Shown one piece after another: positions 1,515-58,317 of a DNA stretch of 64,000 nucleotides. Made by a program: the position numbers and the translations under genes. The DNA comes from a virus. Lineage: Duplodnaviria > Caudoviricetes. A model generated the notes under the pieces. It was given only the letters and a program-made list of their open reading frames with translations, ran no database searches and had not been told where the DNA came from. The stretch is taken from IMG/VR virus record IMGVR_UViG_3300030376_006980, positions 1 through 64,000 of that record. One strand, given 5' to 3'. Position 1 is the stretch's first letter. The number at the start of each line of letters is the position of its first letter.

Positions 1515-2357
1515 ATGGTAAAATTAAAAACATATGATCAATTTGTTAATGAAGCATTAATAGATGCAGTTAAGAATCCGATTAAATGGAAGAAGATTAA
1601 AAACAATGCTAAGAAATATCAAAAGGCTAAAGTAGCACAAGCTCTTAACGATGTAGATTTTGCAAAGAAAAAGGCAAAAGGAAAAGTTAGTATGACTGCT
1701 AAACAAAAAGAAGTTTTGGCCCAAGCAAATAAAGCTAAGAATGCTGCACTTAAAGATCAGGCTGATGCTATTACACAAAGAATGAATGATTTAGCAACAA
1801 CTGATGGTTTAAAAAAGGTTGCTGCATTGGCAAGAACTAAATCTAATCTTGCTGCTAATAAGATAGTACTTAAGGCTGCTGATGGTGAAGAAGCTAAACA
1901 ATTAAAAATTAAACAAACTGCATTATCTAAAAAGGCTGCTGAACAAGGTAAAGCTTTAGCTGACTATGAAGATACCTCATCTGATTCTAAAGATGATAAT
2001 GAAGGAGAAGCAGCAGCAAAATTAGAAAAAGGTATTAAGGACTTTCAATCTAATATGGATGCTGCTCAAGAAACTAAGAAAAAAGCTAAAGAAGCTTTGG
2101 TTAAATTAGGAGATAAGAAAAAAGAACAAGAAAAGAAAGGTACTGGTGGTGAAGACGGTGAAAAGGCAATGGATAAAATTAATAAGGAAATCACTAAACA
2201 AGAAAGATTAGTAACTGGTGCTGATGAAGATTATGCTGAACTTAAAAAGAAAAGAGATGGCTTAAAAGATAAGTTAGCTAATTTAACTAGTGAATCTTTT
2301 GAATATGTAGCAGAATCTGTTTCTCAGAAATTTGCAAGATTAAGATCAAATCTGTAA
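1515..2357 (+). CDS. Lys/Ala-rich internal head protein with capsid-targeting-like N-terminus
   Basis: N-terminus MVKLKTYDQFVNE|A resembles the T4 internal-protein CTS MKTYQEFIAE; coiled-coil-like composition; directly after MCP. Confidence 0.6.
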   Translation: MVKLKTYDQFVNEALIDAVKNPIKWKKIKNNAKKYQKAKVAQALNDVDFAKKKAKGKVSMTAKQKEVLAQANKAKNAALKDQADAITQRMNDLATTDGLKKVAALARTKSNLAANKIVLKAADGEEAKQLKIKQTALSKKAAEQGKALADYEDTSSDSKDDNEGEAAAKLEKGIKDFQSNMDAAQETKKKAKEALVKLGDKKKEQEKKGTGGEDGEKAMDKINKEITKQERLVTGADEDYAELKKKRDGLKDKLANLTSESFEYVAESVSQKFARLRSNL

Positions 2358-2371
2358 AAATAATTATTAAT

Positions 2372-2437
2372 ATGAAATGTGATTGTAAAATATGCGGCTG
2401 TGGTAAATCATGTGAATGTACATGTTGTAGCTGTTAA
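2372..2437 (+). CDS. 21-aa metallothionein-like micro-protein (MKCDCKICGCGKSCECTCCSC)
   Basis: Translated by hand; 9 Cys in CxC/CxxC/CC clusters; A/T-rich leader; fills the intergenic gap. Confidence 0.75.
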   Translation: MKCDCKICGCGKSCECTCCSC

Positions 2438-2448
2438 ATTAAAACCTT

Positions 2449-2952
2449 ATGTATAAAGTTCGTAAAATAAACTTTGGATGGTATAAAAGGCGGTATGGTA
2501 TTCTTCTAGAAAACTTACCGCCTTTGAAGCAAAAATTGCTTTTAAATAACCGTCATATGAAATGGTTAGATTCTGATACTCAAGCTTTTGAAATTATATT
2601 TAAAGTAGAGGATATGAATGGCCATGAAAAGAATGTTAATAAACCTATTTGGAATCCTTTCAGAGAAACATTCACCACACTTAAAGAATTAGAAAAAGAT
2701 GCGGATCTTATTGATTGGAATTGTGGAATATGTAAAGTTCCTATTAAATCTAGAATGGACTCTAAGAAAGTAGAAAATTTTGTTTGTAGTAAATGTTCTA
2801 AGGCTCATAACTCACGGAACAAAAGTGTAGATGGTAGAATTATAGATACATCAATTAAATTTACTAAACACTGTAAACACCTCTTAAAAAAGGAACAAAG
2901 AGAGTTTATGACTTATGCTAAAAGATCATCTAAGGCTAGCCGCCTGATTTAA
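2449..2952 (+). CDS. Hypothetical protein with CxxC-x17-CxxC zinc finger
   Basis: CGIC...CSKC; 167-aa ORF. Confidence 0.6.
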   Translation: MYKVRKINFGWYKRRYGILLENLPPLKQKLLLNNRHMKWLDSDTQAFEIIFKVEDMNGHEKNVNKPIWNPFRETFTTLKELEKDADLIDWNCGICKVPIKSRMDSKKVENFVCSKCSKAHNSRNKSVDGRIIDTSIKFTKHCKHLLKKEQREFMTYAKRSSKASRLI

Positions 2953-3729
2953 TGTAATTTTAGGAAATACTTTTAATCTGCTATTAGGTGATGCATTAAT
3001 TACTTCTACTCCAGTTCCTTTCAATTCATCATAAAGTTGTTTAAATCCTGGTAAAAACTTTTCTTTATATACTTTATCACCAGATGATCTAGTTGGATAG
3101 CCATCATGAAAATGTGTATCTTTTCCATCTTCTGCCATATCAAATCCTAGTAAGACAATTCTTTTTGCACCTAAATGATATGCTAAATTAATTGCAGCAT
3201 ACCCACTATTAAAACCATGAGCTAATGTTTCAGGATCAATTTCTAATCCATAAGGTTTTCCTTTTCTTAATATTTTAATGTCGGATGTATATTGACTTCC
3301 AGGTTTTAATGCAAATTTTAAACCTTTAAAACTATCTACTTCATTCTTAAACCATGTGTAGAATCTGCCATCGGTCCAATATACAACATCTGGATCTGTA
3401 ACATAAATTAAGGCTTTATTAATTGCAATTGTTCTTTTTCCATATAAAGATCTAAAATCAAAACCTTTTAATGACGGACCTCCTCCAACTATAAAAATTG
3501 TTTCGTTAGGAAATAATTTAGGAACATAAGAATATCTTACTGTTCTTGGTTTTTCTTCTGCTGCATTTTTAAGAGAGTGTTGAATTTTTGTAATGTTTGC
3601 TGCAATTGCTTGATTATTAGTAGTCCTTACAGCACTCCTCTCATCATTCCTTCTTTGAATATTAGTTCTAACATTTTGAGTAAAAATGGGTTCTTGAATA
3701 ACTTTTCTAACACTTCTTCTTTTTTGCAT
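2926..3729 (-). CDS. Maf/DUF115 (MptE-like, CstII-like fold) putative nonulosonate/Kdo-type glycosyltransferase; only credible minus-strand gene
   Basis: IFIVGGGPSL, IAINKA, GFNSGYAAINLAYHLGAKRIVLLGFDM, THFH; paralog at 42486. Confidence 0.65.
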   Translation of the reverse strand: MQKRRSVRKVIQEPIFTQNVRTNIQRRNDERSAVRTTNNQAIAANITKIQHSLKNAAEEKPRTVRYSYVPKLFPNETIFIVGGGPSLKGFDFRSLYGKRTIAINKALIYVTDPDVVYWTDGRFYTWFKNEVDSFKGLKFALKPGSQYTSDIKILRKGKPYGLEIDPETLAHGFNSGYAAINLAYHLGAKRIVLLGFDMAEDGKDTHFHDGYPTRSSGDKVYKEKFLPGFKQLYDELKGTGVEVINASPNSRLKVFPKITLNQAASLR

Positions 3730-3761
3730 AATAATACCTATTTTAATATTTATTCAATGTG

Positions 3762-3789
3762 TAAACAATCTTATTTTTTTACATATAAA
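3762..3789 (+). promoter_or_regulatory. Class B promoter (TAAACA-N16-TATAAA)
   Basis: Conserved bipartite motif upstream of clamp loader; 11 copies seen in window. Confidence 0.65.
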
Positions 3790-3802
3790 AATAAACATAT
3801 TT

Positions 3803-4765
3803 ATGCGGAACATACAAAACATTTTACTTACAGAGAAATACCGACCTAAAGTATTAGAAGATTTGATAACACCTAAAAGAGTAGGTGAAAAATTAAGTAA
3901 AGGAGTTTATCAACATTTATTATTACATGGTAGTCCAGGTACAGGAAAAACCTCAGCTGCTAAAGTATTAGTTAAACATTTCAAACATCCTTATCTTTAT
4001 ATTAATGCATCAACAGATACCTCAGTTGATATTGTAAGAAATAGAATAACTGACTTCTGTGCTAACCGTTCAATAATGGATGAGCCAGGAAAAATGAAAG
4101 TTATTATCCTTGATGAGATTGATGGAGTATCAGATCAATTCTTTAAAGCATTAAGAGCAACAATGGATCAATTTGCAGTAAATGCAAGATTTATTGCAAC
4201 ATGTAATTATATTAATAAAGTACCAGATCCTATTCAGTCTAGATTTGAAATGATTGATTTTGATTTTTCAAAGGAAGAAGAAACTGAAATAATGAAAAGT
4301 TACATTATGAGGATTCTTAAAATATGTAAAGATGAAGGTATTAGTATTGATAAACATGCAGCTGTTGAATTAGTAAAAAGAAAATTTCCTGATTTAAGAA
4401 ATATGTTAAATCAACTTCAAGGTTTTCAATCACAAGGAAAAGATACAATAACCGTTGAGGATATTAAACAATTTAGTTCTGTCTATAAAGATATTTATGA
4501 TTTAGTTATAGATGGTACAGATCCTGTAAAGAATTATCAATATATGTTATCAAATTATGCAAATAGAACCGATGATGTTCTATCTTCATTAGGTGCAGAA
4601 TTTATTGAGTTTATTCAACAAGAAAGACAATCATATATTCAATTTATACCTCAGGTGGTAGTAACAGTAGCAAAATATCAAGCACAAAGACAACAAGTAA
4701 TTGATCCTGCAGTATCTATGCTTGCATGTATTTATGAACTGCAATCAATATTAAATGGCGTATGA
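3803..4765 (+). CDS. gp44: Sliding-clamp loader AAA+ subunit (T4 gp44/RFC-like)
   Basis: EKYRP, Walker A GSPGTGKT, IILDEID, SRF sensor, FPDLR. Confidence 0.92.
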   Translation: MRNIQNILLTEKYRPKVLEDLITPKRVGEKLSKGVYQHLLLHGSPGTGKTSAAKVLVKHFKHPYLYINASTDTSVDIVRNRITDFCANRSIMDEPGKMKVIILDEIDGVSDQFFKALRATMDQFAVNARFIATCNYINKVPDPIQSRFEMIDFDFSKEEETEIMKSYIMRILKICKDEGISIDKHAAVELVKRKFPDLRNMLNQLQGFQSQGKDTITVEDIKQFSSVYKDIYDLVIDGTDPVKNYQYMLSNYANRTDDVLSSLGAEFIEFIQQERQSYIQFIPQVVVTVAKYQAQRQQVIDPAVSMLACIYELQSILNGV

Positions 4766-4917
4766 GAGCACAATTTTTAGAAAAATTAATAAAGAAATTT
4801 CCTAATGATTATCAATTAGGACAAGCAGTTAGAAGATATTACATCTTAAGACAAAATAAATTAACAAAAGAGGAATGTGAGGAAACTGTCTTAAAACAAT
4901 CTTTCAGTTTAAACTAA
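4762..4917 (+). CDS. Small hypothetical protein, 51 aa (MRAQFLEKLIKKFPNDYQLG...)
   Basis: Hand-translated; ATGA overlap with the upstream stop. Confidence 0.55.
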   Translation: MRAQFLEKLIKKFPNDYQLGQAVRRYYILRQNKLTKEECEETVLKQSFSLN

Positions 4918-4930
4918 ATTTTGTTATAAT
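4902..4930 (+). promoter_or_regulatory. Class A promoter (TTTCAG-N17-TATAAT)
   Basis: Exact 17-nt spacer; five copies in window. Confidence 0.7.
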
Positions 4931-4948
4931 TATATTAAATAGATTATT

Positions 4949-6184
4949 ATGAGAAAAACAGGAAGGCATACTTTTGTAATTGACGGTAACTATTTTCTTT
5001 TTAGAACATTATATGTTTTACCTAGAAAATCTAAAAAGGCTGAAATGCTTGGCACTGAAGAAGATGCTAATGTATTTATGAGAAAGCTTGCAACTGACTT
5101 TGCATATCAAATCAGATTATTCGAAGGTCTTATTGATAAGGTTGTATGGACCATTGATTCAAGATCATGGAGAAAAGATTTTTATCCAGAGGCAGAATAT
5201 AAAGGTAATCGTAAACAAGACAGTTCAATTAACTGGGCAAACTTTTCTAAGGTTACTGAAGAGTTTACACAATTACTTATTAAACAAGGAGTTATTTATT
5301 CTAAAGTAGACGGAGCAGAAGGTGATGATTTAATGTATGCTTGGAATACTGAATGTTTGGCAAATAACAAATCAGTAATTATGTTTACTGGTGACAGAGA
5401 TTTAGTTCAATTAGTAAATAAAAGTCAAAGTAATAATACTCATACTATTCTATTTTCACCTGCTCATAAAAAATTATATACTTATCAAGGTTTTTCTGAA
5501 TGGCTAACTGAGGAATCAAAAGAAGAGTCAACAGACCTATTTGATGTACTTAAGGTATCATCATCACCAGAGGCACAATCCAAAAAACTACTTTCATCAG
5601 TTATTTCTAAAAAGAAAGTTTCAGTTGTAGAAGTAGACCCTGAAGAGTTCCGTTTCCGCAAGGTCTTAACAGGTGACTCTGGTGATAATGTACCTCCTGC
5701 TTATTGGTATACTTTAACCAAGAATAATAAAACTAGGAGATATGGTATAAGTGAAGGTAAAGCAACATCTATTATTAGTGAATTTAAAGAAAAGCATGGT
5801 TCCTTATCTCATATGTATTTATATGATGATGGTTACATTACTGATTTAGCTAATATACTAATTAGACATATGAAGGCTAAACATATGAGTAGAGAGCAAA
5901 TTATTTCTAATCTTAAATCAAACGTTAATCTTATGGTTCTTAGTTCTCATACTATTCCAGAAGGTATATTAGATGAAATGTTTCAGTCAGTAGAATCTCA
6001 AATAAATATTAATGAATTGGTTTTGCCTAATGTTTCTACAATGAAAAAATTAGTTGCTGGAACAAAATATGATGCAGATGATAATACCGCAATTAAATCT
6101 GCTATCTTTAAAGGCGAAAAAGATGAAGATAGTAACGACTTCTCATTTATAACTAATAAGAAAACGAAAGGTAAAATTTTCTAA
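4949..6184 (+). CDS. 5'-3' exonuclease / flap endonuclease (T4 RNase H-like)
   Basis: VIDGNY, YKGNRK, AEGDDLM, TGDRDLVQL, LTGDSGDNVP. Confidence 0.88.
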   Translation: MRKTGRHTFVIDGNYFLFRTLYVLPRKSKKAEMLGTEEDANVFMRKLATDFAYQIRLFEGLIDKVVWTIDSRSWRKDFYPEAEYKGNRKQDSSINWANFSKVTEEFTQLLIKQGVIYSKVDGAEGDDLMYAWNTECLANNKSVIMFTGDRDLVQLVNKSQSNNTHTILFSPAHKKLYTYQGFSEWLTEESKEESTDLFDVLKVSSSPEAQSKKLLSSVISKKKVSVVEVDPEEFRFRKVLTGDSGDNVPPAYWYTLTKNNKTRRYGISEGKATSIISEFKEKHGSLSHMYLYDDGYITDLANILIRHMKAKHMSREQIISNLKSNVNLMVLSSHTIPEGILDEMFQSVESQININELVLPNVSTMKKLVAGTKYDADDNTAIKSAIFKGEKDEDSNDFSFITNKKTKGKIF

Positions 6185-6230
6185 AATAGAAAACAAACCT
6201 ATCCATAAGTCATATAAATAATAAAAGGTA

Positions 6231-6641
6231 ATGAAATTATTTGATTACATAAAGGTCTTATTTGGCCGAGACCAGCAATGGGACAAATTAAAAGGATATG
6301 ATAAATCTAAAAATTCTTTTATGACAAATAGATTTATGAGTATAAAATTTCCTATTCAAGCCAATATGTTTAATGCATTAAAGATTGATCCTATAGGTCA
6401 AGCAGAGGCATGGAGAATGGTTGCATCAAAATTTAATAGAGTACCTGGTTTTATTTATACAAAAACAAAAGCTTCTAAAAAAGTAAAAAAATGGGATCCT
6501 AATCCTAAGGCGTTAGAAATGTATTTAAAGATTAATGAAATAGGTAAACGTGATTTTAATGAAGCAATGAAACATATGCCATCTGAAATTAAAAATGCAA
6601 TAAACGTATTAGAAAAACAGATGAGTAATGATGTTAGTTGA
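6231..6641 (+). CDS. Hypothetical protein, possibly clamp-loader small subunit (gp62-like)
   Basis: KLFDYIK...NSFMTNRFMS pattern and proximity to gp44; weak. Confidence 0.4.
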   Translation: MKLFDYIKVLFGRDQQWDKLKGYDKSKNSFMTNRFMSIKFPIQANMFNALKIDPIGQAEAWRMVASKFNRVPGFIYTKTKASKKVKKWDPNPKALEMYLKINEIGKRDFNEAMKHMPSEIKNAINVLEKQMSNDVS

Positions 6642-7296: not shown

Positions 7297-7328
7297 AACA
7301 TGAATATATAAACAAAATATGTTTGTAT

Positions 7329-7589
7329 ATGAAAAAGATCATTAGTTGGATAAGCGGCCTTTTAAAAGATGAAAAAGGTACTCCGTCTTCAAAAAGATTT
7401 ATTGGTATTGTTGCAGGTTTATCTTTATGTGCGGCATTATTCATTAATCTTTATACCGAAACACCAGTAGAACCTACCCTTGTTAATGCGGTGGCGGCAA
7501 TATGTATTGGTGGTTTAGGATTGGCTTCTGCTGATAAGATTTTTGGAAAGAAAAAACCTATTGGAGGAGATCAACAAATAAATTCATAA
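7329..7589 (+). CDS. Small 2-TM membrane protein (holin-like family)
   Basis: DEKGTPSSKRFIG followed by two hydrophobic helices; resembles 39946..40170. Confidence 0.55.
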   Translation: MKKIISWISGLLKDEKGTPSSKRFIGIVAGLSLCAALFINLYTETPVEPTLVNAVAAICIGGLGLASADKIFGKKKPIGGDQQINS

Positions 7590-7590
7590 T

Positions 7591-28887: not shown

Positions 28888-29768
28888 GAACATACAGAGG
28901 AGATACATTTGCGGATGTTTATGAATTAGCATTAAGAGATACATTAGAAAGTCCTGAATATACTTCTTCACCAAGAGGTATGGAGATTAAGGAAATATGT
29001 AATGCAGCTTTAATAATAGATGATCCTTATTTTCCACTTTATGAAAATGAAGTAAGGAGTAGTCAATTTAAATATATTGCAGGTGAAACTGTTTGGTATT
29101 TTACAGGCAGGAAGGATATTGAATTTATTGATAAGTTTTCAAAGTTTTGGAAACAATTAGATAACGGTGATGGTACTGTAAATTCTGCTTATGGTAATCT
29201 TATATTTAAAGAACCTCTTTCTGATGGTAGAAATCAATGGCAATGGGCATTAGATTCTTTAATAGAAGATAGAGATTCAAGACAAGCAATTTTACATTTT
29301 AATAAACCATCTCATCAATGGCAAGGTAATAAAGATTTTGTATGTACTCTTAATGGTGTATTTCAAATCAGAGATAACAGATTAAACTTTACAGTTGATA
29401 TGAGATCAAATGATCTTATCTTAGGTACAGCAACTGACATTGCATTTTTCTGTTTATTACAACAACAAATGTTAAAGCATTTACAAGTGTGGTATCCTAA
29501 TCTTAAAATGGGTAACTATACTCATATTGTACATTCACTTCATATTTATGAAAGGCATTTTGATTTAGTTAAAAGAATGTTAGATAAACCTTTTATGCAA
29601 ATGTCTTATCCACCTTTAAAAGAAAATCTTATTACAACTAAAGGTCATCCTACTGATAATATGAATCTTTTAGAAGATAACATATTAGATGATACTCCAA
29701 TTGTAGAAATTTTCAATGATCCACTATTCCGATGGTTATCATCTTATAGTAAGGACTCTGATATATAA
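28884..29768 (+). CDS. Thymidylate-synthase-family enzyme, T4 gp42 dCMP hydroxymethylase-like
   Basis: VNSAYG, DSRQA, DFVCT, MRSNDLILGTATDIAF (Asp at the ThyA N177 position), SLHIYERHF. Confidence 0.8.
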   Translation: MRTYRGDTFADVYELALRDTLESPEYTSSPRGMEIKEICNAALIIDDPYFPLYENEVRSSQFKYIAGETVWYFTGRKDIEFIDKFSKFWKQLDNGDGTVNSAYGNLIFKEPLSDGRNQWQWALDSLIEDRDSRQAILHFNKPSHQWQGNKDFVCTLNGVFQIRDNRLNFTVDMRSNDLILGTATDIAFFCLLQQQMLKHLQVWYPNLKMGNYTHIVHSLHIYERHFDLVKRMLDKPFMQMSYPPLKENLITTKGHPTDNMNLLEDNILDDTPIVEIFNDPLFRWLSSYSKDSDI

Positions 29769-29782
29769 TAAAATAAATCAAA

Positions 29783-31594
29783 GTGTTGAAATATCTAAAA
29801 CTTTTTGAAGAATTCATAACAGAGAAGAAACCTAAGGGAGCTCCTGACTTCCACCATTCTGATGCACCTGATGCTGAAGGTCGCTTTAGAGATTTAAGTC
29901 CTAAGAAATTAGCCGCATGGTTAATTAAAACCAGAAAGAAAGACTTAAAAAGAATTAGCGGTTCTTTAACTCAACAAGTAGTATTTAATAGAAAGAGTGA
30001 TCCTAAATATGCTGATAAGATGGAAAAGACCAGAATTGAAGTATATAAGCAATTAGGTAGAGATGATTTATTAAATAAAGATGAATCAGTACAATTTGTA
30101 AATGAAGGAATTGACTTCCAGGCTATTTTACTAAAAGATGCAATGTTAAAGTATAACATTCAACCAACTGGTGGAATTCCACGTACATTACAGTTTGCTG
30201 GTAAAGGTTATATGAAAGCTCCTAAAGGTACATTCTTAATTGGTTTACCTGGTGGTCTATTTGCCGTTAATCTGAAAAAGAAATTTGCTGTTCAACTCAC
30301 AAGCGGAAGTAGAGCTTACTTAGATGCTCAAGATAAGTTAAAAGATAATGAGGTTGGAGGAACTAATATGGCTCCTGAATATAGAGAATGGAAAAAGTAC
30401 CTAAATGAATCAGTAGTTACTGAAGGTAAACTAAAAATATCTGGACCTGCTTACGATCTTTGGGATGAGAAAGAAGTCCAAAGAAAATTAAGAGGCGTTA
30501 AGATAAAGATAGTTGGAGATATTGGAGGTGTTGCAACAATTAAAGGTGACGATAAAGAACTACAAAAAGTTAAAGACATATTAGGTTTAAATGAAGCAGC
30601 TGAACATGAAGATTATTTAAACAAAGTTAATTTTTTACTAGCAGGAGAAAAATTAGAAGGTCTTACTGGAAAAAATAATAAAAGAATTTATGGTGAAATA
30701 AACGATGTTTGTTTAGAAAAGCTATATAATTCATTTTATGCAAAAGGTGATTATGGAAAAGTATTAGAAGTTAATTCTGATTTACCTCTTATTTATTATG
30801 GTGGAAATTCTAAAGAAGGATTAGATTTTATAAAGAGATATAACATATCTGAAAATGTTATGTATAATTCACCAAAGGCAATGAAGGTGAGCGGTAATAA
30901 AAGTAAGTTTTATAAAATGTTTGAGGATACTGATTTTATTCCAAAGGCTGTTTATAAAAAAGAAGATGCAAAAGATTTACAATTTCCTGTAATTGCAAAA
31001 CCTGATGATGGTCATTCAGGTTTAGGTATTGAGATATTTGATACTTATGAAGACTTAGAAAAAAGTAAAGGTAAATTTGAAAATTATTCAGAGGCAAAGG
31101 ATTTAGATAAAGAATTCAGAGTTTTGTTAATGAATGAAGAACCTGTGTTAGTTCATGAAAGAGTTTCTTTAAATGAAAATGAAATTAAAGATAAAGATGC
31201 AGATGAGCAAACTGAATTTACCTATGTAGATCAAGATATGAATAAATTAGATTTTATGAATGAAGTAAATAACATTTGTAAAACTATTAGAGAAAAATTA
31301 AAACTTGGTCTTTGGTCAATCGACTTAATGATTGATAAGAGTGGTAATTGTTGGGTTGCAGAAATTAACTCAGCATCAGGAATGGCCGCTGATAAGATGG
31401 CAAGAGTTTATGTCAAAGTATATGAAGATTTTTATGGTAAGGAATTACCACAAGAATTTAAAACCTATTTAAATGAAGAATACATACAACCTATTTACAA
31501 AATTAATTTGAAGGAAAATGCAGCTCAAATTAAAAAATCTAAATGCTGCGTTAACTATCAAAATATCATTGATGGTAAAGAATTTATTCTCTAA
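29783..31594 (+). CDS. Multi-domain internal head protein: CTS-like N-terminus, small domains, C-terminal RimK-like ATP-grasp
   Basis: MLKYLKLFEEFITE; internal VNE/VTE/LNE sites; VIAKPDDGHSGLGI, EFRVL, WSIDLMID, VAEINSASG. Confidence 0.7.
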   Translation: MLKYLKLFEEFITEKKPKGAPDFHHSDAPDAEGRFRDLSPKKLAAWLIKTRKKDLKRISGSLTQQVVFNRKSDPKYADKMEKTRIEVYKQLGRDDLLNKDESVQFVNEGIDFQAILLKDAMLKYNIQPTGGIPRTLQFAGKGYMKAPKGTFLIGLPGGLFAVNLKKKFAVQLTSGSRAYLDAQDKLKDNEVGGTNMAPEYREWKKYLNESVVTEGKLKISGPAYDLWDEKEVQRKLRGVKIKIVGDIGGVATIKGDDKELQKVKDILGLNEAAEHEDYLNKVNFLLAGEKLEGLTGKNNKRIYGEINDVCLEKLYNSFYAKGDYGKVLEVNSDLPLIYYGGNSKEGLDFIKRYNISENVMYNSPKAMKVSGNKSKFYKMFEDTDFIPKAVYKKEDAKDLQFPVIAKPDDGHSGLGIEIFDTYEDLEKSKGKFENYSEAKDLDKEFRVLLMNEEPVLVHERVSLNENEIKDKDADEQTEFTYVDQDMNKLDFMNEVNNICKTIREKLKLGLWSIDLMIDKSGNCWVAEINSASGMAADKMARVYVKVYEDFYGKELPQEFKTYLNEEYIQPIYKINLKENAAQIKKSKCCVNYQNIIDGKEFIL

Positions 31595-35784: not shown

Positions 35785-35811
35785 TTGAATATATAAAAAA
35801 AATCAAATTCA

Positions 35812-36108
35812 ATGTTTATTAAAAACTACAGTGAATTCCTTTTAGAAGTTAGAGATAAAAAACCTAAAGTAGCAGGAGAAAAGACTGAAAAAGATCATAA
35901 GGATGGAAATCACAAAGGAGTTGACAAAGAATTAGAGAAAAAAGTAAACGATGAACTGGAAGCCGTTGAAGAAGAATGTGTCCGATGCGGAGAGCATATC
36001 GAGTCTTGTAAATGTGAGGAGGAGGACCCATGGTCAACTCAAAATTATCACAGAGTTCCAAAAGGAAAAGAACAGACAGCAAAACCAAAACAAGAATTTA
36101 AAAAGTAA
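35812..36108 (+). CDS. Small charged internal head protein candidate (CTS-like)
   Basis: MFIKNYSEFLLE; CxxC...CxC; late motif TTGAATATATAA upstream. Confidence 0.55.
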   Translation: MFIKNYSEFLLEVRDKKPKVAGEKTEKDHKDGNHKGVDKELEKKVNDELEAVEEECVRCGEHIESCKCEEEDPWSTQNYHRVPKGKEQTAKPKQEFKK

Positions 36109-36112
36109 TAAA

Positions 36113-36400
36113 ATGAATAAATTTGACCAATTTTTTGCAAAACATGGAATTAAAATAATAATAGTATTATTGTTATTAACTTATTTTAAATCATGTAGTG
36201 TTGATTCTGAAGTAGAAAGAATCAAAAAAGAACAAAGAACATTAACTAATGAGATTGATACATTATCTTCTCAAATAGTAAATGAGGAGGAAATGATTTT
36301 CTTAATTAAAACAGTTCCTGCTTGGAAAACTCTAAGAATTGAAGAAATTTCTGATAAAGAAAGAATTTCTATTAATGCCTTAGAAGAAAAAGAAGATTAA
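36113..36400 (+). CDS. Single-TM coiled-coil protein (i-spanin-like topology)
   Basis: N-terminal TM then coiled coil; real start 36113. Confidence 0.45.
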   Translation: MNKFDQFFAKHGIKIIIVLLLLTYFKSCSVDSEVERIKKEQRTLTNEIDTLSSQIVNEEEMIFLIKTVPAWKTLRIEEISDKERISINALEEKED

Positions 36401-39945: not shown

Positions 39946-40170
39946 ATGTGGAACATTTTTAAAGATGATAACAACTGGAATGAAAAGGCGATAGTTGGTT
40001 TTATTGCCTTTTTAGTAATGTGTCTTATTATGATAGCTGACTTGGTAACAGGTTGGTTTGGAAAGGACTTAGTGATTAATGAGTTTGTTTATGATTCATT
40101 TACATTAGTAGTTCTTGGCTGCTTTGGTATAGCAGGATTAGAAAAATTTGCAGGAAAGAAAAAAGAATGA
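39946..40170 (+). CDS. 2-TM holin candidate
   Basis: Two TM helices, charged C-terminus, within the lysis cassette. Confidence 0.55.
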   Translation: MWNIFKDDNNWNEKAIVGFIAFLVMCLIMIADLVTGWFGKDLVINEFVYDSFTLVVLGCFGIAGLEKFAGKKKE

Positions 40171-40535
40171 TACATTTTCTAACTTACAAAGATTTTTTAG
40201 TTGAAGCTGATAAAAGAATAGCTCGTAAAGAAGGACAGCCAGCAGGATCTGATAAACATTCTGATTTATATACAGATGAAGATCCTAAAGGCACAATTCA
40301 TGGTTTAGGTTTTAAAGATGCTGAAACGGCAAATAAAAGTATTGATATAATTAAAAAGGCAAAAAGAACTCATGCTCATAAAGTACAAGCAACACTTGTA
40401 ATGCAGCAAAGAGGAAAGGTTGCTATTGAAAGGACTAAAGATCCTGAAAAGAAAAAGAATCTCAAAGCTGCTAATAAAATATGGACTGCATTTTTAGAAG
40501 AAATGAAAAAGAAAACAAAAGAAAGAAATGGATAA
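40167..40535 (+). CDS. Basic internal head protein candidate (CTS-like)
   Basis: MIHFLTYKDFLVE|A; HSDLYTDEDPKGTIHGLGFKD. Confidence 0.55.
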   Translation: MIHFLTYKDFLVEADKRIARKEGQPAGSDKHSDLYTDEDPKGTIHGLGFKDAETANKSIDIIKKAKRTHAHKVQATLVMQQRGKVAIERTKDPEKKKNLKAANKIWTAFLEEMKKKTKERNG

Positions 40536-40911
40536 GTATATTTATAGAGGCAAATTAGAAAGGGTTGTAGATGGAGATACTATTGATGCTCTTATTGATG
40601 TAGGTTTTGATATTTGGGTAAAAAAGAGAATCAGGTTTGTTGGAATGGATGCGTGGGAAAGTAGAACCAGAAACTTAGAAGTAAAGAAAAAAGGATTAGC
40701 AGCTAAGGAGAGATTAAAGGTCTTATTAAATGAAGTCAGTAGTAAACCAGGATTCTTTAGGATCAAGTCTGAGGGTGTAGGTAAATATGGTAGAGTATTA
40801 GGTCAGATTTATATAATGGATGTAGAAGGAAAGCAATGGGATATAAACCAAACACTAATTACAGAAGGTCATGGATATGAATATCATGGAGGTAAAAAAC
40901 GGACATCCTGA
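40528..40911 (+). CDS. Thermonuclease (SNase-like) family nuclease
   Basis: VVDGDTID, IRFVGMDAWE, KYGRVLG. Confidence 0.85.
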   Translation: MDKYIYRGKLERVVDGDTIDALIDVGFDIWVKKRIRFVGMDAWESRTRNLEVKKKGLAAKERLKVLLNEVSSKPGFFRIKSEGVGKYGRVLGQIYIMDVEGKQWDINQTLITEGHGYEYHGGKKRTS

Positions 40912-49311: not shown

Positions 49312-49327
49312 ATAAAAATACAATATA

Positions 49328-50682: not shown

Positions 50683-50702
50683 ATTTAAAAATTACATATA
50701 AT
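50675..50702 (+). promoter_or_regulatory. Class B promoter (TAAACT-N16-TATAAT)
   Basis: Upstream of 50715. Confidence 0.6.
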
Positions 50703-50714
50703 AATAAATGGATT

Positions 50715-50945: not shown

Positions 50946-50952
50946 TTAAATA

Positions 50953-51802: not shown

Positions 51803-51804
51803 GT

Positions 51805-52053: not shown

Positions 52054-52095
52054 CTTCTTCCTTGTTGAATAAATAAAGAAAACAAACTATTTAAC

Positions 52096-53157
52096 ATGGA
52101 ACATATTAAAGACTATAAATTATTTAAAGAGTCTCTACAAACCGATTTAATTACTGAAAGATTTAGTTCATCTATTCTTAGAGATTTTGCTTCTCAAGAT
52201 GGATTAAAATCAAGATGGAGAGGTAACTTAGCAAAGGATATGCAAAAATTTGCTAACCTTGCTATTGATAAAATTTCAGATGCAGATTTTACTACAACCA
52301 CACCAGCAGCTTATTGGAAAGGCCCTGATGCTAAAGATCCTAACAAAGTAGGATTCTTTGTTGATGATGACAAAAATTTCATTAAGTGGGCAAAGGCAAA
52401 CAAAAAATATTTACCAGGTTCATTAGATTTAAATAACATTTCTAAATATGGAGTGGTACTTTCTGTTGTTAGAGGTGGTGTTGGTATGTGGTCTGGTTTC
52501 CAAATGGATAGAGGATCAACTTACAGCAGACATAGAAAAGGTGCAGATGATAGATATGGAGTTCTTGCAAAAGATTATGAAACCAGTTCTTTATATAAGG
52601 GATGGGACGGTGCTCCTGCTGCTAAAGTAACAAGAAAGAATCTTATTGATGCCGCAACTCGTGTATATGTTTTAGATTTAAATAGTTTAAGAGACAAATA
52701 CGATGTAAGTGGATTAAAATCAGATCGTGCAAATTCTAAAGCTGGTGCAACTGCCTTAAAAACTGCTAAAGAGATTAAAGATGAAAACCGTAAAAGGTAT
52801 ACTGCTATCTTACAAGATAAAGCAGCAATGACTGATATTGATAAAGCCGTTAGAGATTCAATTGAATTATTAAACACTCATATCTCTGATGCTTTAGATA
52901 AAGGTGAAATGGATCAATTTGGAAACTTTGTTATTGGCAAAAGTCCTAGAGGTAGATCTGTATCAATTAAAGACGGTGCAGGTGCTATCAGAAATATGTT
53001 AGATGACTACCAAAGATATAAGGATTATGAAAGGCAAGATAAAGAAGCAAAGGCTGAAGGTAGAGAAGATAACTATTATGCAAGAGAAGTAAAGGCTTAT
53101 GCTAAAAGACTTACTGATTATGCTAAGAAAGTAAAGGATAAAAATTACGGCTGGTAA
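52096..53157 (+). CDS. Internal head protein candidate (CTS-like)
   Basis: MEHIKDYKLFKES...LITE|R; late motif TTGAATAAATAA upstream. Confidence 0.6.
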   Translation: MEHIKDYKLFKESLQTDLITERFSSSILRDFASQDGLKSRWRGNLAKDMQKFANLAIDKISDADFTTTTPAAYWKGPDAKDPNKVGFFVDDDKNFIKWAKANKKYLPGSLDLNNISKYGVVLSVVRGGVGMWSGFQMDRGSTYSRHRKGADDRYGVLAKDYETSSLYKGWDGAPAAKVTRKNLIDAATRVYVLDLNSLRDKYDVSGLKSDRANSKAGATALKTAKEIKDENRKRYTAILQDKAAMTDIDKAVRDSIELLNTHISDALDKGEMDQFGNFVIGKSPRGRSVSIKDGAGAIRNMLDDYQRYKDYERQDKEAKAEGREDNYYAREVKAYAKRLTDYAKKVKDKNYGW

Positions 53158-53159
53158 TT

Positions 53160-54662
53160 ATGAAATATATTAGAGGAATAAATGAAGCTTTCATTGGCCC
53201 TTTTGTTTTTAGTGAAAGAATGTCCGATGATGAATTAAAAGGAATGTATAATGCAGCTATTGATGGTTACTCTTATCATCAAAAAGGTATGCAATATTCT
53301 AAGTCAGATTACAAGAAAGCATATATGGCTATTGAAAAGATCTTAAAGAAAAGGGGAATTAAGGTAGATGAAGGCAGGAGAATTGATGAAGCTTTGCTTG
53401 AAAATGCAGTTAGAGATCTACATTTTGAAACAGATCCTAAAAAAGCAGAAGAAATGAAAATAGCTATCGGTGCATCTCAAGGAGAAGTTATAAGGCGTAA
53501 ACAAATTGAAGGCGGTAATTATTCATTAAGAAGATTTAGAAAAGAGATTAAATATGATAAGACTGGTAAAGATCTTGGTGTATTTAAACCTGGCAGTTAT
53601 ATGGCTGCTACTTCTAAATTAGGTGATGGCCCTCACAAGAAAGCTGTTGCTAAAGTAAAATGGAATAGAAAGAAATATGACCAATGGTTAAAAGATGTCG
53701 CGTCAAACGATGGTTGGAGAAATGCTTATGACATGGCGCAAAATGCTAAACACGAACCAGGTCTATTACAATGGGCTAAAAAAGAATTTAGAGGTGAAGA
53801 TGTAATGCAAAGAATTCAATGGGATATTGAAGCATTTGCAGAATCTGTAGTTAACGAAAAGAACTTTATTAAAAAATATACAGAATTTTTATTAGAAAAG
53901 AAAAAGGAAAAAGAATCCTTTGAAGATAAAATTGAAGGTGATGGATACTATAAAGGTATATCTACATCAACCGCTCGCCAAAAGGTGGATCAAATGAAAA
54001 AGCAATCTCAGATGTCTGATGATGATCCAGATGCTTATAAAGAAATGCCAGGTGATACTAAAGGTAAAAAACTTTTAAAGAAATCTAAACACACTAAAGC
54101 ATTTGATGATTTATATGCTGATGAAGCCTTAGAAGAAATGGTTACTAATGAAAGTGTAATGAGTGAATTACATGTAATGATGGAGGAGGCTAAAAACTTT
54201 AATCAGTTTAGAAAAATGTTTTATGAAGAGTTTAGTGATAAAGTTAAACCTAATAAAGATATGGATTCTTGGTTAAAATCATTATATGAAGAAGGTTTAG
54301 GTGAAAGTCTTGAAGAAAAGGCAGGTGGAGATAGAAGTCCTATTAAAGGAAAAGGAATAGAGACAGGCCTTAAAAAGAAATCAGAACAAACAGGTGTATC
54401 ATTACCATTATTAAGATTAGTAATGAGGAGAGGTATGGCTGCATGGAAAAGTGGACATAGACCTGGTGCTGGGCAAGAACAATGGGGTTATGCTAGAGTT
54501 AATTCATTTTTAACTAAAGCTCCTGGTACTTGGGGAAGACCATTAGATAATCCTAAAAAGAATGGACCTAAAGGAAAATTTGGAGCTGATGCTGATATTG
54601 CTAAAGAAGTAATTAAAAAAGGCGAGGATAAGAAATTAAAAACAACAGGCTTACCTAAGTAA
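53160..54662 (+). CDS. Multi-domain internal head polyprotein candidate
   Basis: MKYIRGINE|A; internal NFIKKYTEFLLE; C-terminal RRGMAAWKSGHRPG..QEQWGYARVNSF domain. Confidence 0.6.
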   Translation: MKYIRGINEAFIGPFVFSERMSDDELKGMYNAAIDGYSYHQKGMQYSKSDYKKAYMAIEKILKKRGIKVDEGRRIDEALLENAVRDLHFETDPKKAEEMKIAIGASQGEVIRRKQIEGGNYSLRRFRKEIKYDKTGKDLGVFKPGSYMAATSKLGDGPHKKAVAKVKWNRKKYDQWLKDVASNDGWRNAYDMAQNAKHEPGLLQWAKKEFRGEDVMQRIQWDIEAFAESVVNEKNFIKKYTEFLLEKKKEKESFEDKIEGDGYYKGISTSTARQKVDQMKKQSQMSDDDPDAYKEMPGDTKGKKLLKKSKHTKAFDDLYADEALEEMVTNESVMSELHVMMEEAKNFNQFRKMFYEEFSDKVKPNKDMDSWLKSLYEEGLGESLEEKAGGDRSPIKGKGIETGLKKKSEQTGVSLPLLRLVMRRGMAAWKSGHRPGAGQEQWGYARVNSFLTKAPGTWGRPLDNPKKNGPKGKFGADADIAKEVIKKGEDKKLKTTGLPK

Positions 54663-55207
54663 TGAAATTTATAAAAGGCTTTAAGGATTTTAAAAATGTA
54701 TCTGAAGAATTAAAATATCATGTGGATAATGGTATAGGTTTAGATGATACTGTTTTTCGTTTAGGATCTGATGCTCATAGTAAACTTTTTGAAGAAGCTA
54801 AACAATATTGGGATGAAGGAAATCTAATATTAAAAGGTAAAAGTGGGTGGATGGCTAAGAACCTTGAAGTAGGTAAGAAAGCAATTTATAAAGATCGTAA
54901 ATCAGGTAGAACAAAAGATGTTAAACTTGATTCACCAGAAAGAGGAGGCAACAGAAAGTTTATTGTTTATCGTAATAGTGGAAGAACTGATAAAGAAACA
55001 GGAAAGATAGTTGCTAAGAAAATAGAATGGGGCGATCCTAAATTAGCTGTTAAGAATGATGATCCAGGAAGAGCTGCTAGTTTTTGGGCAAGACACCAAT
55101 GTGATCAAAAGAAAAAGATGGATCCTAATAAAGCTGGTTTTTGGGCATGTTATGGGCCAAGTCTATTTGGAAAGCAGTTAGGATTAAAAAGTACTAATCC
55201 TTGGTAA
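54662..55207 (+). CDS. Internal head protein candidate (CTS-like)
   Basis: MKFIKGFKDFKNVSE|E; WGDP...RAASFWARHQC...AGFWAC. Confidence 0.55.
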   Translation: MKFIKGFKDFKNVSEELKYHVDNGIGLDDTVFRLGSDAHSKLFEEAKQYWDEGNLILKGKSGWMAKNLEVGKKAIYKDRKSGRTKDVKLDSPERGGNRKFIVYRNSGRTDKETGKIVAKKIEWGDPKLAVKNDDPGRAASFWARHQCDQKKKMDPNKAGFWACYGPSLFGKQLGLKSTNPW

Positions 55208-55235
55208 ATAAATAATAAAATAAAAATAATAAACA

Positions 55236-56264
55236 ATGGCATACGGAGAAGATTATTCTAGGAGCGCATCTGAGCCTACTTCTGAACAAAGTACTAGGAG
55301 TTTTAGAAAAATGTTCAATAAACAAGGTGATACTCTAGGTTGGGTAGCTGGAAAGGATGTACCTATATATTATACATCAGACCTACCGAATGGTCAACAA
55401 AATGGTTATTCTGTAGATAGTGGTTATTGTGAGTGGAGTAACGGAAATAGGATTTATATAGGTGATACTTATAGTAGCGGTACTCAACCAGCTGGGCTTA
55501 ATGATGGAGCATCTTCAAGATATTGTTATCAATGGACAAGAATAGGTGGTGTAGTAACTGGTTCAGGAAGGGTACAGTTAGGTGTTAACGGTGGAACAAC
55601 CGGTACTTCCGCAACATGGTTAAAATTTGGAGGGAATACCACTTCTTCATTAGCTAATGAAGCTTTAATAACAAGTTATGATATAGGTGAAGGTGATAAA
55701 AACTCCAATGCTTATTGTGTAGCAACTATTCCATTACCTGTTTATTATCAAACAAATGAAAATATACAATCCGGTATTGCTCTAAACCCACCAATGGCTA
55801 GTAGAGCCGATACTACAGCTGGAATCCAAAACTCTCTTCAAGCAAACGCCCTCCAGGGAGTAAAAAAGGATTTTAATGATGATTATATAGGTGGGTCAGG
55901 TACTGTGGTCGGTTTATGGTATAATACAATTGGAGATGAAGGGTTTGACTTTAGGCCAATATTTCCGGATGGAACTGTTACTAGTGCTATAGATCCTCCA
56001 ATAGCAAATGTTACTGGTATGGTACATTTTGGCTATAATACTTTTTGGTATGAACACAGTTTGAATAACAACTATCCTGCAAGATATATGAATATAATAG
56101 TTAAAGCTGTACAAACGCCAAATGGAAGTGATGGTGGCCTAAGAAATTATGTCCCAAGTAGTTCATATACGGGGAATCAATATAGAAATATATTGCCGCC
56201 AATGTATCATTTTACATTTAGTTATGTATTAGGTGGGTATGAAGCAACTGAGACTCTCGGTTAA
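55236..56264 (+). CDS. Gly/Ser/Thr/Tyr-rich beta protein, probable virion component
   Basis: Composition and late-cluster context. Confidence 0.5.
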   Translation: MAYGEDYSRSASEPTSEQSTRSFRKMFNKQGDTLGWVAGKDVPIYYTSDLPNGQQNGYSVDSGYCEWSNGNRIYIGDTYSSGTQPAGLNDGASSRYCYQWTRIGGVVTGSGRVQLGVNGGTTGTSATWLKFGGNTTSSLANEALITSYDIGEGDKNSNAYCVATIPLPVYYQTNENIQSGIALNPPMASRADTTAGIQNSLQANALQGVKKDFNDDYIGGSGTVVGLWYNTIGDEGFDFRPIFPDGTVTSAIDPPIANVTGMVHFGYNTFWYEHSLNNNYPARYMNIIVKAVQTPNGSDGGLRNYVPSSSYTGNQYRNILPPMYHFTFSYVLGGYEATETLG

Positions 56265-56278
56265 AAATAAAAGAAGTA

Positions 56279-57973
56279 ATGAAAAATTTAAAAAGAATAG
56301 ATGAAGCAGTAGGTTCTATCGAAGAAAGAAGAGTTGCTGCTGATAGATTACTTAAAGATGTTGTAAAAGGATCTACCTCATCAGTAGAGGGTATTAAATT
56401 ATCTAAAGAAATGGCTCAAGCATTTTTAGATTGGCAAAGAATGTCTACTTATGGAAAGAAATTCGGTAAGTTACCTTTTTACATGTTATTCACTGCTGCT
56501 TTTAATTGGGGATTGGACAGATACATTGGTAAAGATAAAAAGATTAAAGACGAGTATAAAGAACTTAAGGCTAAGGCTAAAGAAATGAGTAAGCAGCAAA
56601 AAATGAAAGGGGAATCAGTAAACGAAATGTCATTAGGGCATGCAGAGGTAAAAAAAGTAGTAAAAGATTTATCTCGAAATCAAAAAATAGCACTTGAAAG
56701 AGCTATTAAAGACGGAACAATAAAAACATCTGAAGATTTAAGTAATTGGGCAAAATCTATTCATGAATCACTTAATGAAGAGGAAACTCTTATATACGAT
56801 GAATTAGGTACTGAATTACAAAGCATAGAGGATAAGATTAATGATTTAGCTGCTTCTGCTGCCGATCCTAAATGGGCACGTGCATTAGATAGTATAGGAA
56901 GTCAGTTAGATAAATTAATGATGACAATCAATAAGCATGACAGAAAACTTGGTGCTATTGAGTTAAATGAATCTGATGAAATAAATGAAGCATCTGCTAA
57001 AAATGTTTTAAAAGATGCTGTAAATGCATTAACCAAAACATTTGCTGGAAAGAAATTAGATAAATCTTATGTTAAAGATTATTTAGCATCAATGGAGAGA
57101 ATGGCTAAAAAGAAGCCTATGGACTTTGTAAAAGATTATATGAACTTTTCAAATGATGATTGGATAGAAGATGTAGAATATAACATGGCTAATGAAAAAG
57201 TCAATGAAGCTAGATTTGTTAAGTCATATGATACTAAAGTAAATGATGCTGAAACAGAAAAAGAAGTTTTAAAAATATATCCAAAGGCTAAATTCTTTGT
57301 TGGTAAAATGAGTCATTTCTTTGGAGAACTTGAACCTAATCTTTTCTTTAAAGCTTATTATCCTAAATACTATAAACAAGATACAGGTAAATCTATTAAA
57401 GGTGATTTTAAAATTACTTCAGTATATTCTCAAAAAGGAAGTAAGTATGTAGAATTAATGAAAGAATCTATTAATGAAGCTAAATTTAGTTTTTCTGAAG
57501 ATGAAGTAAAGGATGTTGCTGAATTGATAGCAAAAGCAATTGCAAAATTAGATAAAACTAAAACAGCAGTACATGATATGGATTATGTTGCAGGCCGTGG
57601 TGCTGGATTTGAAGTATCAATGGACGGTGAGAAATATGAAGGTGGAAGTTATGTTGTAAGACCTAACGGTGATGTTGTTAATGCTGCTATCGGTAATTCA
57701 TTTCCTAATGCTATATATGCAAAGATAGGAGATAAGGATATTAAAAAAGTTATGAAGAACATTAAAAAGTTTGAATCTGTTGAAATAAATGAAGCTGCAC
57801 CTAAAATGAAAAAGAGTAAAGAAGTAGGAGAATTAGAAAAGCTAAGAATGTTAGTAATTAATTCTAAGAAAGGTGGAGCTGGTAATAGATACGGTAAAGA
57901 ATTTGATAAAGAAAAAAATAAAGCTGTCGTTGCTTTGGATAATATGATAAGCTACGCAAAAATAGGAATATAA
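56279..57973 (+). CDS. Polyprotein-like internal head protein with about 7 (I/V/L)NE| sites
   Basis: IDE|A, VNE|M, LNE|E, INE|A, VNE|A, INE|A, INE|A. Confidence 0.6.
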   Translation: MKNLKRIDEAVGSIEERRVAADRLLKDVVKGSTSSVEGIKLSKEMAQAFLDWQRMSTYGKKFGKLPFYMLFTAAFNWGLDRYIGKDKKIKDEYKELKAKAKEMSKQQKMKGESVNEMSLGHAEVKKVVKDLSRNQKIALERAIKDGTIKTSEDLSNWAKSIHESLNEEETLIYDELGTELQSIEDKINDLAASAADPKWARALDSIGSQLDKLMMTINKHDRKLGAIELNESDEINEASAKNVLKDAVNALTKTFAGKKLDKSYVKDYLASMERMAKKKPMDFVKDYMNFSNDDWIEDVEYNMANEKVNEARFVKSYDTKVNDAETEKEVLKIYPKAKFFVGKMSHFFGELEPNLFFKAYYPKYYKQDTGKSIKGDFKITSVYSQKGSKYVELMKESINEAKFSFSEDEVKDVAELIAKAIAKLDKTKTAVHDMDYVAGRGAGFEVSMDGEKYEGGSYVVRPNGDVVNAAIGNSFPNAIYAKIGDKDIKKVMKNIKKFESVEINEAAPKMKKSKEVGELEKLRMLVINSKKGGAGNRYGKEFDKEKNKAVVALDNMISYAKIGI

Positions 57974-57975
57974 AA

Positions 57976-58317
57976 ATGGAACATTTTAAAACATACGGTG
58001 AATTTATAACTGAAGGCCAATTAAACGAAAAAGATTATTCTACTGAGCAAAGAAAAGAAATGGCAGAAAAAGGATTAGCTTTACCTGATGGTAGTTTTCC
58101 TATTGCTAATGTTCAGGATTTAAAAAATGCTATTTTATCTTATGGCAGATCAAAAGATCATTCAAAAGTTGCTAAGTTTATAGCAAAAAGAGCAAAGGCA
58201 TTAGGTGCTGAAGATCTTATTCCAGATACAGAAGATTTTCAAAAGGCACTTAAAGAAGTTGCTATGAGAGTTCCTGCAAAAACAATTGCAATTGATTCAG
58301 AAGAAGACGAGGACTAA
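57976..58317 (+). CDS. Internal head protein candidate (CTS-like)
   Basis: MEHFKTYGEFITE; ALPDGSFPIANVQDLKNAI..YGR. Confidence 0.6.
   Translation: MEHFKTYGEFITEGQLNEKDYSTEQRKEMAEKGLALPDGSFPIANVQDLKNAILSYGRSKDHSKVAKFIAKRAKALGAEDLIPDTEDFQKALKEVAMRVPAKTIAIDSEEDED

Follow-up and report, generated by a model that had tools for sequence, protein, structure and literature searches.

In bacteriophage T4, internal proteins enter the assembling head by way of a short N-terminal targeting sequence, and the first ten residues of internal protein (IP) III are reported to suffice for packaging (PMC9026906). Targeting depends mainly on residues 4 and 7 of this tag and processing on residues 8 and 10 (PMC9026906), and the tag is described as the only conserved part of the T-even internal proteins (PMC3012670). 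The reviews of T4 consulted credit the tag with an affinity for the scaffold core and name no specific partner there; Alt is listed among the packaged head proteins. The giant phages phiKZ, 201phi2-1 and SPN3US are reported to load dozens of head-internal proteins via N-terminal propeptides, which the prohead protease trims after x-x-E, paralogues sharing conserved N-termini (PMC5694885). Here we analyse a family of T4-like N-terminal leaders in a 64,000-nucleotide stretch of viral DNA (Duplodnaviria; Caudoviricetes), positions 1 to 64,000 of the IMG/VR record IMGVR_UViG_3300030376_006980, which we refer to as the window.

We consider it fairly probable that the window encodes a capsid-targeting and protease-processing system of the T4 type, enlarged, modular and with a cargo that is in part encoded as polyproteins. 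By this reading of the sequences, the phage, a marine relative of T4 that has not been cultured, probably ships a changeable protein cargo together with its DNA. What is new here is that 14-residue repeats in the scaffold of related phages share the leader’s seven-residue pattern. Our literature search, with subscription journals and supplements outside its range, met the targeting sequence only in connection with T4, T-even relatives, SPN3US-type giants, P1 and engineering, and found no account of such leaders in marine or Bacteroidota T4-like phages.

A leader shared by unrelated proteins

The canonical leader, [YF]xxF[ILV]xE, begins within the first 10 residues of five of the window’s 85 open reading frames (ORFs), which we name by their start positions (1515, 29783, 35812, 40167 and 57976). 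The rate at inner positions predicts 0.09 such leaders, and 2000 runs with shuffled N-termini gave a mean of 0.09 and a maximum of 2. LR756500.1, a complete uncultured 462-kb relative, carries the canonical leader on 20 of its 717 ORFs (0.80 expected; 0.84 in shuffles), and a further relative, G001, on 4 of 227 (0.20 expected). A scoring matrix was trained only on the 20 leaders of LR756500.1 and applied to all 19,256 positions of the window. Its five best hits, in order, were an internal site in ORF 53160 (residue 236), 35812, 40167, 1515 and 57976, while 29783 ranked 7, 54662 ranked 10 and 52096 ranked 25.

Two of these ORFs, 52096 and 54662, carry a variant leader in which K-x-[YF]-x-x-F comes at once and the [ILV]xE triplet later (LITE at residue 21 and VSE at residue 15, respectively). 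K.[YF]..F stands at six of the 85 N-termini, against 0.44 expected. Both variant layouts are kept in orthologues, and one body family is headed by the canonical leader in a single relative and by the spaced form in another three. Over both classes, the leaders of the window are 12 to 21 residues long with I, L or V at P3; the [ILV]xE triplet follows the aromatic core immediately in the canonical form and after 4 to 11 residues in the variants.

The original prediction had counted nine ORFs in this family, and all nine N-termini read as it gave them. The five canonical leaders and the two conserved variants bear it out; the remaining two, 53160 (MKYIRGINE/A) and 56279 (MKNLKRIDE/A, without an aromatic core), have a short [ILV]xE[AGS] N-terminus only. 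This short form occurs on three of the 85 ORFs, against 2.92 expected, and we dropped it as a second leader class, given a frequency at the level of chance. The leader family is real, yet smaller than claimed: seven of the nine stand. A full leader inside 53160 had been missed.

The conserved positions coincide with the four mapped in T4 (Y4, F7, I8 and E10). Among 29 distinct DNA versions of the 1515-type leader, K5, F10 and E13 are invariant and Y7 is present in 28; the residue after the invariant F is V, I or L, and the x positions vary freely. The codons differ synonymously (TAT/TAC, GAA/GAG) among these versions, which together with the free x positions points to selection on the peptide and not on the RNA. 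As a positive control, a degenerate DNA pattern for the tag was run on T4 (NC_000866), where ipII and ipIII both translate to MKTYQEFIAE, the sequence previously quoted for T4. A match at 136,349 was rejected as ipI, the site lying within rnlA.

The bodies behind the leaders are otherwise unrelated, as had been proposed. In the window and the fetched loci together, 85 of 1449 ORFs carry a leader, and blastp clustering of their bodies at 1e-5 gave 13 clusters, two of which resemble chance hits, leaving at least 11 unrelated families. The fetched loci are the best 80 of 550 IMG/VR stretches that encode a related capsid protein in a search with the capsid alone, at 64-100% capsid-protein identity. 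None of the replication or nucleotide-metabolism genes identified in the window has a leader. The expectation that tagged proteins would far outnumber the three IPs of T4 holds in LR756500.1, with its 20 of 717 ORFs.

A repeat in the scaffold of related phages

The window begins inside a gene for a gp23-type major capsid protein, of which the 3' part is present (2..1417; phrog_138 major head protein, E 8.3e-24). This gene, the window’s leader genes, the internal leader and the motifs upstream of leader genes all lie on the + strand, as do nearly all genes of the window. Full-length orthologues of the capsid protein match Pfam Gp23 at 1.4e-28. They start with MYANQLINE/AEV in the window’s group and MIKLINE/AEI in LR756500.1, so that the short capsid propeptide ends in the same kind of triplet as the leaders.

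In relatives, the capsid gene is preceded, in order, by genes for a gp15-like protein, a small sigma-like protein, a T4-type portal (Portal_T4, 8e-72) and a protease-scaffold of 570-646 amino acids, and is followed by the orthologue of 1515. The first ~140 residues of the protease-scaffold match Peptidase_S77 at 8.6e-14 (S80 more weakly, at 6.1e-7), and this S77 protease matches the T4 prohead protease structure (PDB 5jbl) at 1.4e-4. S77 was found in T4, G001, LR756500.1 and the relative L003.

In L003 (7661-9484) and 41 other relatives, 42 distinct proteins in all, one polypeptide combines the gp21-type protease with a scaffold-like region in which a 14-residue unit, K-x-I-x-Y-[ST]-E-Y-[ILV]-[AGS]-E, is repeated. 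Nine repeats scored in 40 of these proteins and eight in two; beyond them the scaffold has one FMNFL[SGT]E. The tail past the repeats differs by up to about 85 residues while the repeat number stays near-constant. The protease-scaffold of LR756500.1 gave four repeat matches, spaced by multiples of 14. At its core, the repeat follows the leader over seven residues ([YH]xx[YH][ILV]xE), except that the second Phe is replaced by Tyr or His. A matrix built from the scaffold repeats alone ranked the six canonical leaders of the window, the internal one included, 1, 5, 24, 85, 295 and 319 among 19,147 positions.

This likeness can be read in either of two ways: the leader may dock by joining the repeat array, or leader and repeat may both be extended substrates of the same protease. 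Both readings would place the tagged proteins in the prohead.

We infer the following sequence of docking, cutting, retention and ejection. The aromatic core of the leader ([YF]-x-x-F, usually after Lys) would dock the protein, once made, to the scaffold core of a prohead under assembly. The gp21-family (S77) protease, part of the same polypeptide as the scaffold in this lineage, would then cut after the Glu. The mature body, mostly basic, would remain inside the head with the DNA, and some bodies at least would leave with it at infection. In the long members 29783, 53160 and 56279, several such bodies may be strung together, with [ILV]-N-E sites or an internal leader at the joins; one gene could then load several proteins.

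A more specific version, which we put forward tentatively and would at present sooner doubt than accept, treats the leader as a single copy of the scaffold’s 14-residue repeat. In this scheme, aromatic-x-x-aromatic-[ILV]-x-E units would make up the scaffold as a double-heptad array, in which tagged cargo co-assembles and is cut by the same protease, a plug-in form of loading for delivery into the host. Cargo genes could then be freely gained, lost, split or strung into [ILV]NE-jointed polyproteins, and the loaded proteins would be enzymes and binding proteins (the ATP-grasp protein of the window; the leucine-rich-repeat, polynucleotide-kinase phosphatase and metallopeptidase/VWA proteins of LR756500.1).

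The tagged genes and their putative modular cargo

Leader gene 1 (1515..2357) directly follows the capsid gene and encodes the canonical leader MVKLKTYDQFVNE/A followed by a body of 267 amino acids, low in complexity, Lys/Ala-rich and basic (isoelectric point (pI) 9.6). Its orthologue retains the leader in 55 ORFs of the 80 loci. Searches of the phage collection by tblastn with 1515 and with 17958 gave no match. Near its C-terminal end (2283-2306, residues 257-264), ORF 1515 reads SFEYVAES, of which EYVAE is identical to part of the scaffold repeat; the protein may thus be processed or docked at both ends.

Leader gene 2 (29783..31594) has a GTG start and the leader MLKYLKLFEEFITE/K, followed by a string of modules with VNE/LNE joints at residues 106, 207 and 269 and, last, a domain matching ATP-grasp families. 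In the relatives L099 and L103, this ATP-grasp part is a separate gene of 343 amino acids with its own leader, MKKVKLFEKFLLE, and an LNE/A joint stands at the corresponding place in 29783. The first module (A) of 29783 is a stand-alone leader gene in L101 and L104. The ATP-grasp homologue of LR756500.1 (LR_255749, minus strand) starts with MKFIKPYEEFKIND, which has the aromatic core with Asp in the Glu position. For T4, a Glu-to-Asp change at this leader position is reported to block processing while still permitting targeting (PMC9026906).

Leader gene 3 (35812..36108) encodes MFIKNYSEFLLE/V and an 86-residue body with a CxxC...CxC cluster. It is a real gene despite its overlap with a longer listed ORF: the G001 orthologue has the same length and stop, and the differences between the two fall mostly on third codon positions (20, versus 10 and 6). 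The next gene (36110-36400) starts at 36110 and not at the listed 35951, and encodes a small membrane-anchored protein; its N-terminus, MNKFDQFFAKH, is leader-like, and the G001 version, MNKFNKFFAEH, satisfies the strict pattern. Leader gene 4 (40167..40535) encodes MIHFLTYKDFLVE/A and a basic body of 109 amino acids (pI 9.9; phrog_727, function unknown). A staphylococcal-nuclease homologue (40528-40911; 2.5e-7) overlaps its end by 8 bases and has no leader of its own.

A promoter-like motif lies upstream of three of these genes, ATATATAATAAA at 1483..1494 (ORF 1515) and 29761..29772 (ORF 29783), and ATATATAAAAAA, conserved in G001, at 35789..35800 (ORF 35812). The general form, ATATATAAWAAA, has five matches in the window against 0.64 expected, all upstream of the sheath, tube, 1515, 29783 and 35812 genes, so that three leader genes share a putative regulatory mark with tail structural genes. 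The claim that leader genes sit behind a late-type motif applies to these three; no motif of the ATATATAAWAAA type lies directly upstream of the 52096-58317 cluster. A second, distinct promoter-like motif, CATATAAAAATAAA, has seven matches against 0.78 expected (3782, 23731, 26982, 28080, 34407, 47196 and 50695), just upstream of clamp-loader, topoisomerase, kinase and other non-structural genes.

The cluster opens with leader gene 5 (52096..53157), whose variant leader MEHIKDYKLFKESLQTDLITE/RFSS precedes a conserved body of 332 amino acids with 82 homologues. In all seven sequences compared (the window and six homologues, down to 33% identity), an [IL]xE triplet precedes the start of the body. 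One homologue, P0199 (561 aa), has two modules inserted between leader and body, one of which is the module found at about residues 310-398 of 56279.

ORF 53160 (53160..54662) is a fusion whose second half is a leader-bearing gene in relatives and whose end is DUF5824-like (E 4.7e-13). The internal canonical leader, FIKKYTEFLLE, occupies residues 236-246 (53865..53897), preceded by a VNE at 231-233, and ranks first with both matrices (1 of 19,256 with that trained on LR756500.1, 1 of 19,147 with that from the scaffold repeats). In L081-L083, two genes stand in place of 53160, and the second begins with MEFIKKYTEFLLE, the counterpart of the window’s internal leader.

Leader gene 6 (54662..55207) encodes the variant leader MKFIKGFKDFKNVSE/E and a highly conserved body of 166 amino acids with 403 homologues. 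Mean column identity over 30 aligned homologues is 81%; M1, K5, V13 and S14 are invariant, and residue 15 is divided between E (16 sequences) and P (14). The DUF5824-like end of 53160 and the 54662 body are also neighbours in HTVC008M (L148, 107221-109412) and in the Methylophilales phage Melnitz; in HTVC008M, the DUF5824-like part forms the C-terminal end of a 596-residue ‘cytidyltransferase’. Within the cluster, a 342-residue ORF rich in Gly, Ser, Thr and Asn (55236-56264) has no leader and no family match, and is absent here in L081 and L082.

ORF 56279 (56279..57973) is a multi-module gene with seven [ILV]NE sites, and its N-terminus resembles a cleavage site only. In G001, the module that follows INE/A (residue 398) stands alone as a leader-bearing gene that begins MKHIKTFDSINE/A. 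Beyond residue 20, [ILV]NE occurs 13 times in the 2634 residues of the nine proteins and 18 times in 15,748 residues elsewhere, a 4.3-fold enrichment (Fisher 1.7e-4) for a motif that was picked after inspection of the data. The controls, [ILV]NK and the general [ILV].E (37 in 2634 versus 267 in 15,748 residues), were not enriched in the nine.

Leader gene 7 (57976..58317) encodes the canonical leader MEHFKTYGEFITE/G and an acidic body of 100 amino acids. G001 has this gene, whereas L081 and L082 lack it at the corresponding place; L083 stops short of that point. Body residues ~19-91 have 45-65% identity to an actinophage domain, which in four records falls under a gene annotated as capsid maturation protease; in the Gordonia phage ChisanaKitsune it lies at the C-terminal end of that gene, adjoining the capsid gene. 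This match gives independent support for a location in the head interior. The ESM Atlas offered no usable lead for 57976 or 52096, and PDB sequence matches of 57976 (designed TIM barrels, low-complexity) were dismissed. Directly after the cluster (58718-61452) come genes for a ClpA/B-type double-ring AAA+ protein of 688 amino acids (58718-60784; AAA_2 7e-65, ClpB_D2-small 3e-23) and for ClpP (60784-61452; 222 aa, 2.9e-59), a pair that is kept in L081, L082, G001 and LR756500.1.

Taken over these genes, the modular tag proposed earlier finds its evidence in relatives whose bodies have been exchanged, separated or joined where a leader or an [ILV]NE site marks the boundary, the two N-termini at chance frequency aside. 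The predicted mature bodies are basic in seven of nine cases (pI 8.9-9.9). Searches of Pfam, PHROGs and NCBIfam returned no named function for seven of the nine, and the ATP-grasp domain of 29783 is the only recognisable one among the window’s putative cargo. The proposal that the cargo comprises host-takeover and anti-defence effectors is a guess for the window, while the LR756500.1 set does contain effector-like proteins. Its 20 tagged ORFs begin MKYIxxYxxF[ILV]xE and are scattered from 13 kb to 455 kb; five encode leucine-rich-repeat proteins, one a DUF2201 metallopeptidase with a VWA-like domain, one a polynucleotide-kinase 3'-phosphatase and one a DUF5661 protein, and twelve have no Pfam match.

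The rest of the window, with a G+C content of 28-34%, encodes a large terminase, a 1075-residue tail sheath, a tail tube, a gp44-type clamp loader, a 5'-3' exonuclease, both topoisomerase II subunits, a thymidylate-synthase-like enzyme, guanylate kinase, a sigma factor, PhoH and an amidase, besides the staphylococcal-nuclease homologue, the ClpA/B-type ATPase and ClpP. The phage collection has no close relative; LR756500.1 is the best match in it (47% identity in the sheath and 51% in the capsid protein), followed by Lak, Tenacibaculum and Flavobacterium phages. A marine member of the Bacteroidota is the probable host, judging by the Tenacibaculum and Flavobacterium phages among the relatives.

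Competing explanations and known systems

Several observations weigh against a T4-type system of delivered cargo. No close cultured relative was found in the phage collection, and the presence of the protease is deduced from relatives with 64-90% capsid-protein identity, the window itself starting within the capsid gene. Two of the nine N-termini are within chance, and the choice of [ILV]NE was made after the fact. The 54662, 52096 and 1515 proteins are conserved like core genes, unlike fast-evolving effectors. In the 54662 family, Pro at residue 15 in 14 of 30 members means that cutting there cannot be a conserved requirement, and two of these 14 have no adjacent Glu either; in the Flavobacterium phage immuto, the 54662 body occurs without an aromatic leader. 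With the scaffold-repeat matrix, the variant leaders come far down the list (5058 and 8298 of 19,147). The repeat motif was not found in T4 gp21, gp22, gp67 or gp68 or in the scaffold of the Tenacibaculum phage PTm1, and the idea that the leader imitates the scaffold repeat therefore does not explain T4. We also dropped the notion of a leader general to T4-like marine phages, as the DNA pattern is no more frequent than its reversed control in Syn9 and HTVC008M.

The alternative that survives best, which we regard as unlikely, holds that the tagged proteins are head-assembly parts, cut and expelled before DNA packaging like T4 gp22, gp67 and gp68, with nothing injected. The motif would then serve the prohead protease as an extended recognition site, or else be an assembly element of scaffold type. 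That the scaffold’s own repeat unit has the same seven-residue pattern is consistent with this, as are the Lys/Ala-rich 1515 protein, of low complexity and encoded beside the capsid gene in 55 ORFs of 80 loci, and the core-like conservation of the 54662 and 52096 families. However, several bodies are of folded-domain size and enzyme-like (the ATP-grasp domain of 29783; in LR756500.1 the polynucleotide-kinase 3'-phosphatase, the metallopeptidase/VWA protein and five leucine-rich-repeat proteins), an odd choice for a disposable scaffold. Furthermore, T4 gp22 is reported to be cut into short fragments (PMC5694885), whereas the general [ILV]xE is not enriched in the bodies, and genes such as 57976 come and go among relatives.

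Less probable still, in our judgement, is that the leader is a tag for another phage enzyme, either the phage’s own ClpA/B-like unfoldase with ClpP or a leader-directed modifying enzyme. Here, the AAA+ and ClpP genes adjoin the 52096-58317 cluster, and ClpP occurs in G001 and twice in LR756500.1, both of which bear leaders; these points, too, count against the cargo reading. An ATP-grasp enzyme is itself in the tagged set, and the ATP-grasp class includes leader-guided peptide ligases. Yet of the three genomes compared (T4, G001 and LR756500.1), T4 has the tag without ClpP. The positions conserved in the tag are those to which T4 capsid targeting and cleavage by gp21 have been mapped. The tag is also similar to the scaffold repeat, and three leader genes share their upstream motif with the sheath and tube genes.

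The weakest explanation, that the motif is a by-product of AT-rich composition or a shared 5' coding signal for translation start in a host that does not use Shine-Dalgarno pairing, with no role at the protein level, can appeal to the G+C content, to the AT-rich codons of Lys, Tyr, Phe, Ile and Glu and to the lack of an obvious Shine-Dalgarno (by reading) at the start regions, but is very improbable and close to refuted by shuffles that keep composition (0.09 versus 5 in the window, 0.84 versus 20 in LR756500.1), by conserved residues that persist through synonymous codon changes while x positions are free, by the absence of the motif from the sheath and tube genes and the relatives’ capsid genes, and by its use as an internal junction.

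If the tagged proteins are cargo of the T4 type, a T-even speciality would extend to an abundant marine phage group (550 IMG/VR stretches) and to a huge phage of 462 kb. The leader would then provide a sequence rule for predicting which unknown genes encode virion-delivered proteins, the first phage proteins that a host meets, and its natural leaders and joints may be of use for loading foreign proteins into phage heads. Should the leader imitate the scaffold repeat, this lineage would offer a concrete and testable docking rule.

Among described systems, the ‘prohead core scaffolding protein and protease’ of PTm1, a cultured phage reported to have a virion proteome, resembles that of the window’s relatives in that a single gene, immediately before the capsid gene, encodes the protease domain and a long scaffold-like C-terminal region. 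Unlike theirs, it does not match the repeat pattern, and neither of two small ORFs inspected downstream of the PTm1 capsid gene has a leader; the idea that PTm1 carries the leader was dropped, as the 10-kb locus around the capsid gene has no canonical one.

Polyvalent proteins, as described by Iyer et al. (2017, PMC5512222), likewise combine unrelated modules in a single chain that is believed to accompany the DNA into the host. The domains typical of them were not found in 29783, 53160 or 56279; moreover, sites of the protease type separate the modules here, which are also found singly in genes with a leader of their own.

The giant phages phiKZ, 201phi2-1 and SPN3US share with the window N-terminal propeptides that end in x-x-E and load head-internal proteins. 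Their propeptides are mostly longer than 100 residues with an A/S/G-x-E cut motif (PMC5694885), whereas the leaders of the window, at 12-21 residues, are T4-like. The protease of the window’s relatives, in turn, belongs with S77 (8.6e-14) more closely than with S80 (6.1e-7).

The closest resemblance is to the T4 internal proteins (IPI, IPII, IPIII and Alt): KTYGEFITE in the window stands beside KTYQEFIAE in T4, the bodies are mutually unrelated in both, the S77 protease and portal families of the window’s relatives and the capsid family are those of T4, and each set has an enzyme, ATP-grasp here and Alt, an ADP-ribosyltransferase, in T4. The window differs in its number of tagged genes, at least seven in 64 kb (20 in the 462-kb relative), and in variant leaders with a spacer before the putative cut site. 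Its group also fuses the protease to a repeat-bearing scaffold, a repeat that T4 gp22, gp67 and gp68 do not have. Finally, several of its genes string modules together, with [ILV]NE joints or an internal leader between them.

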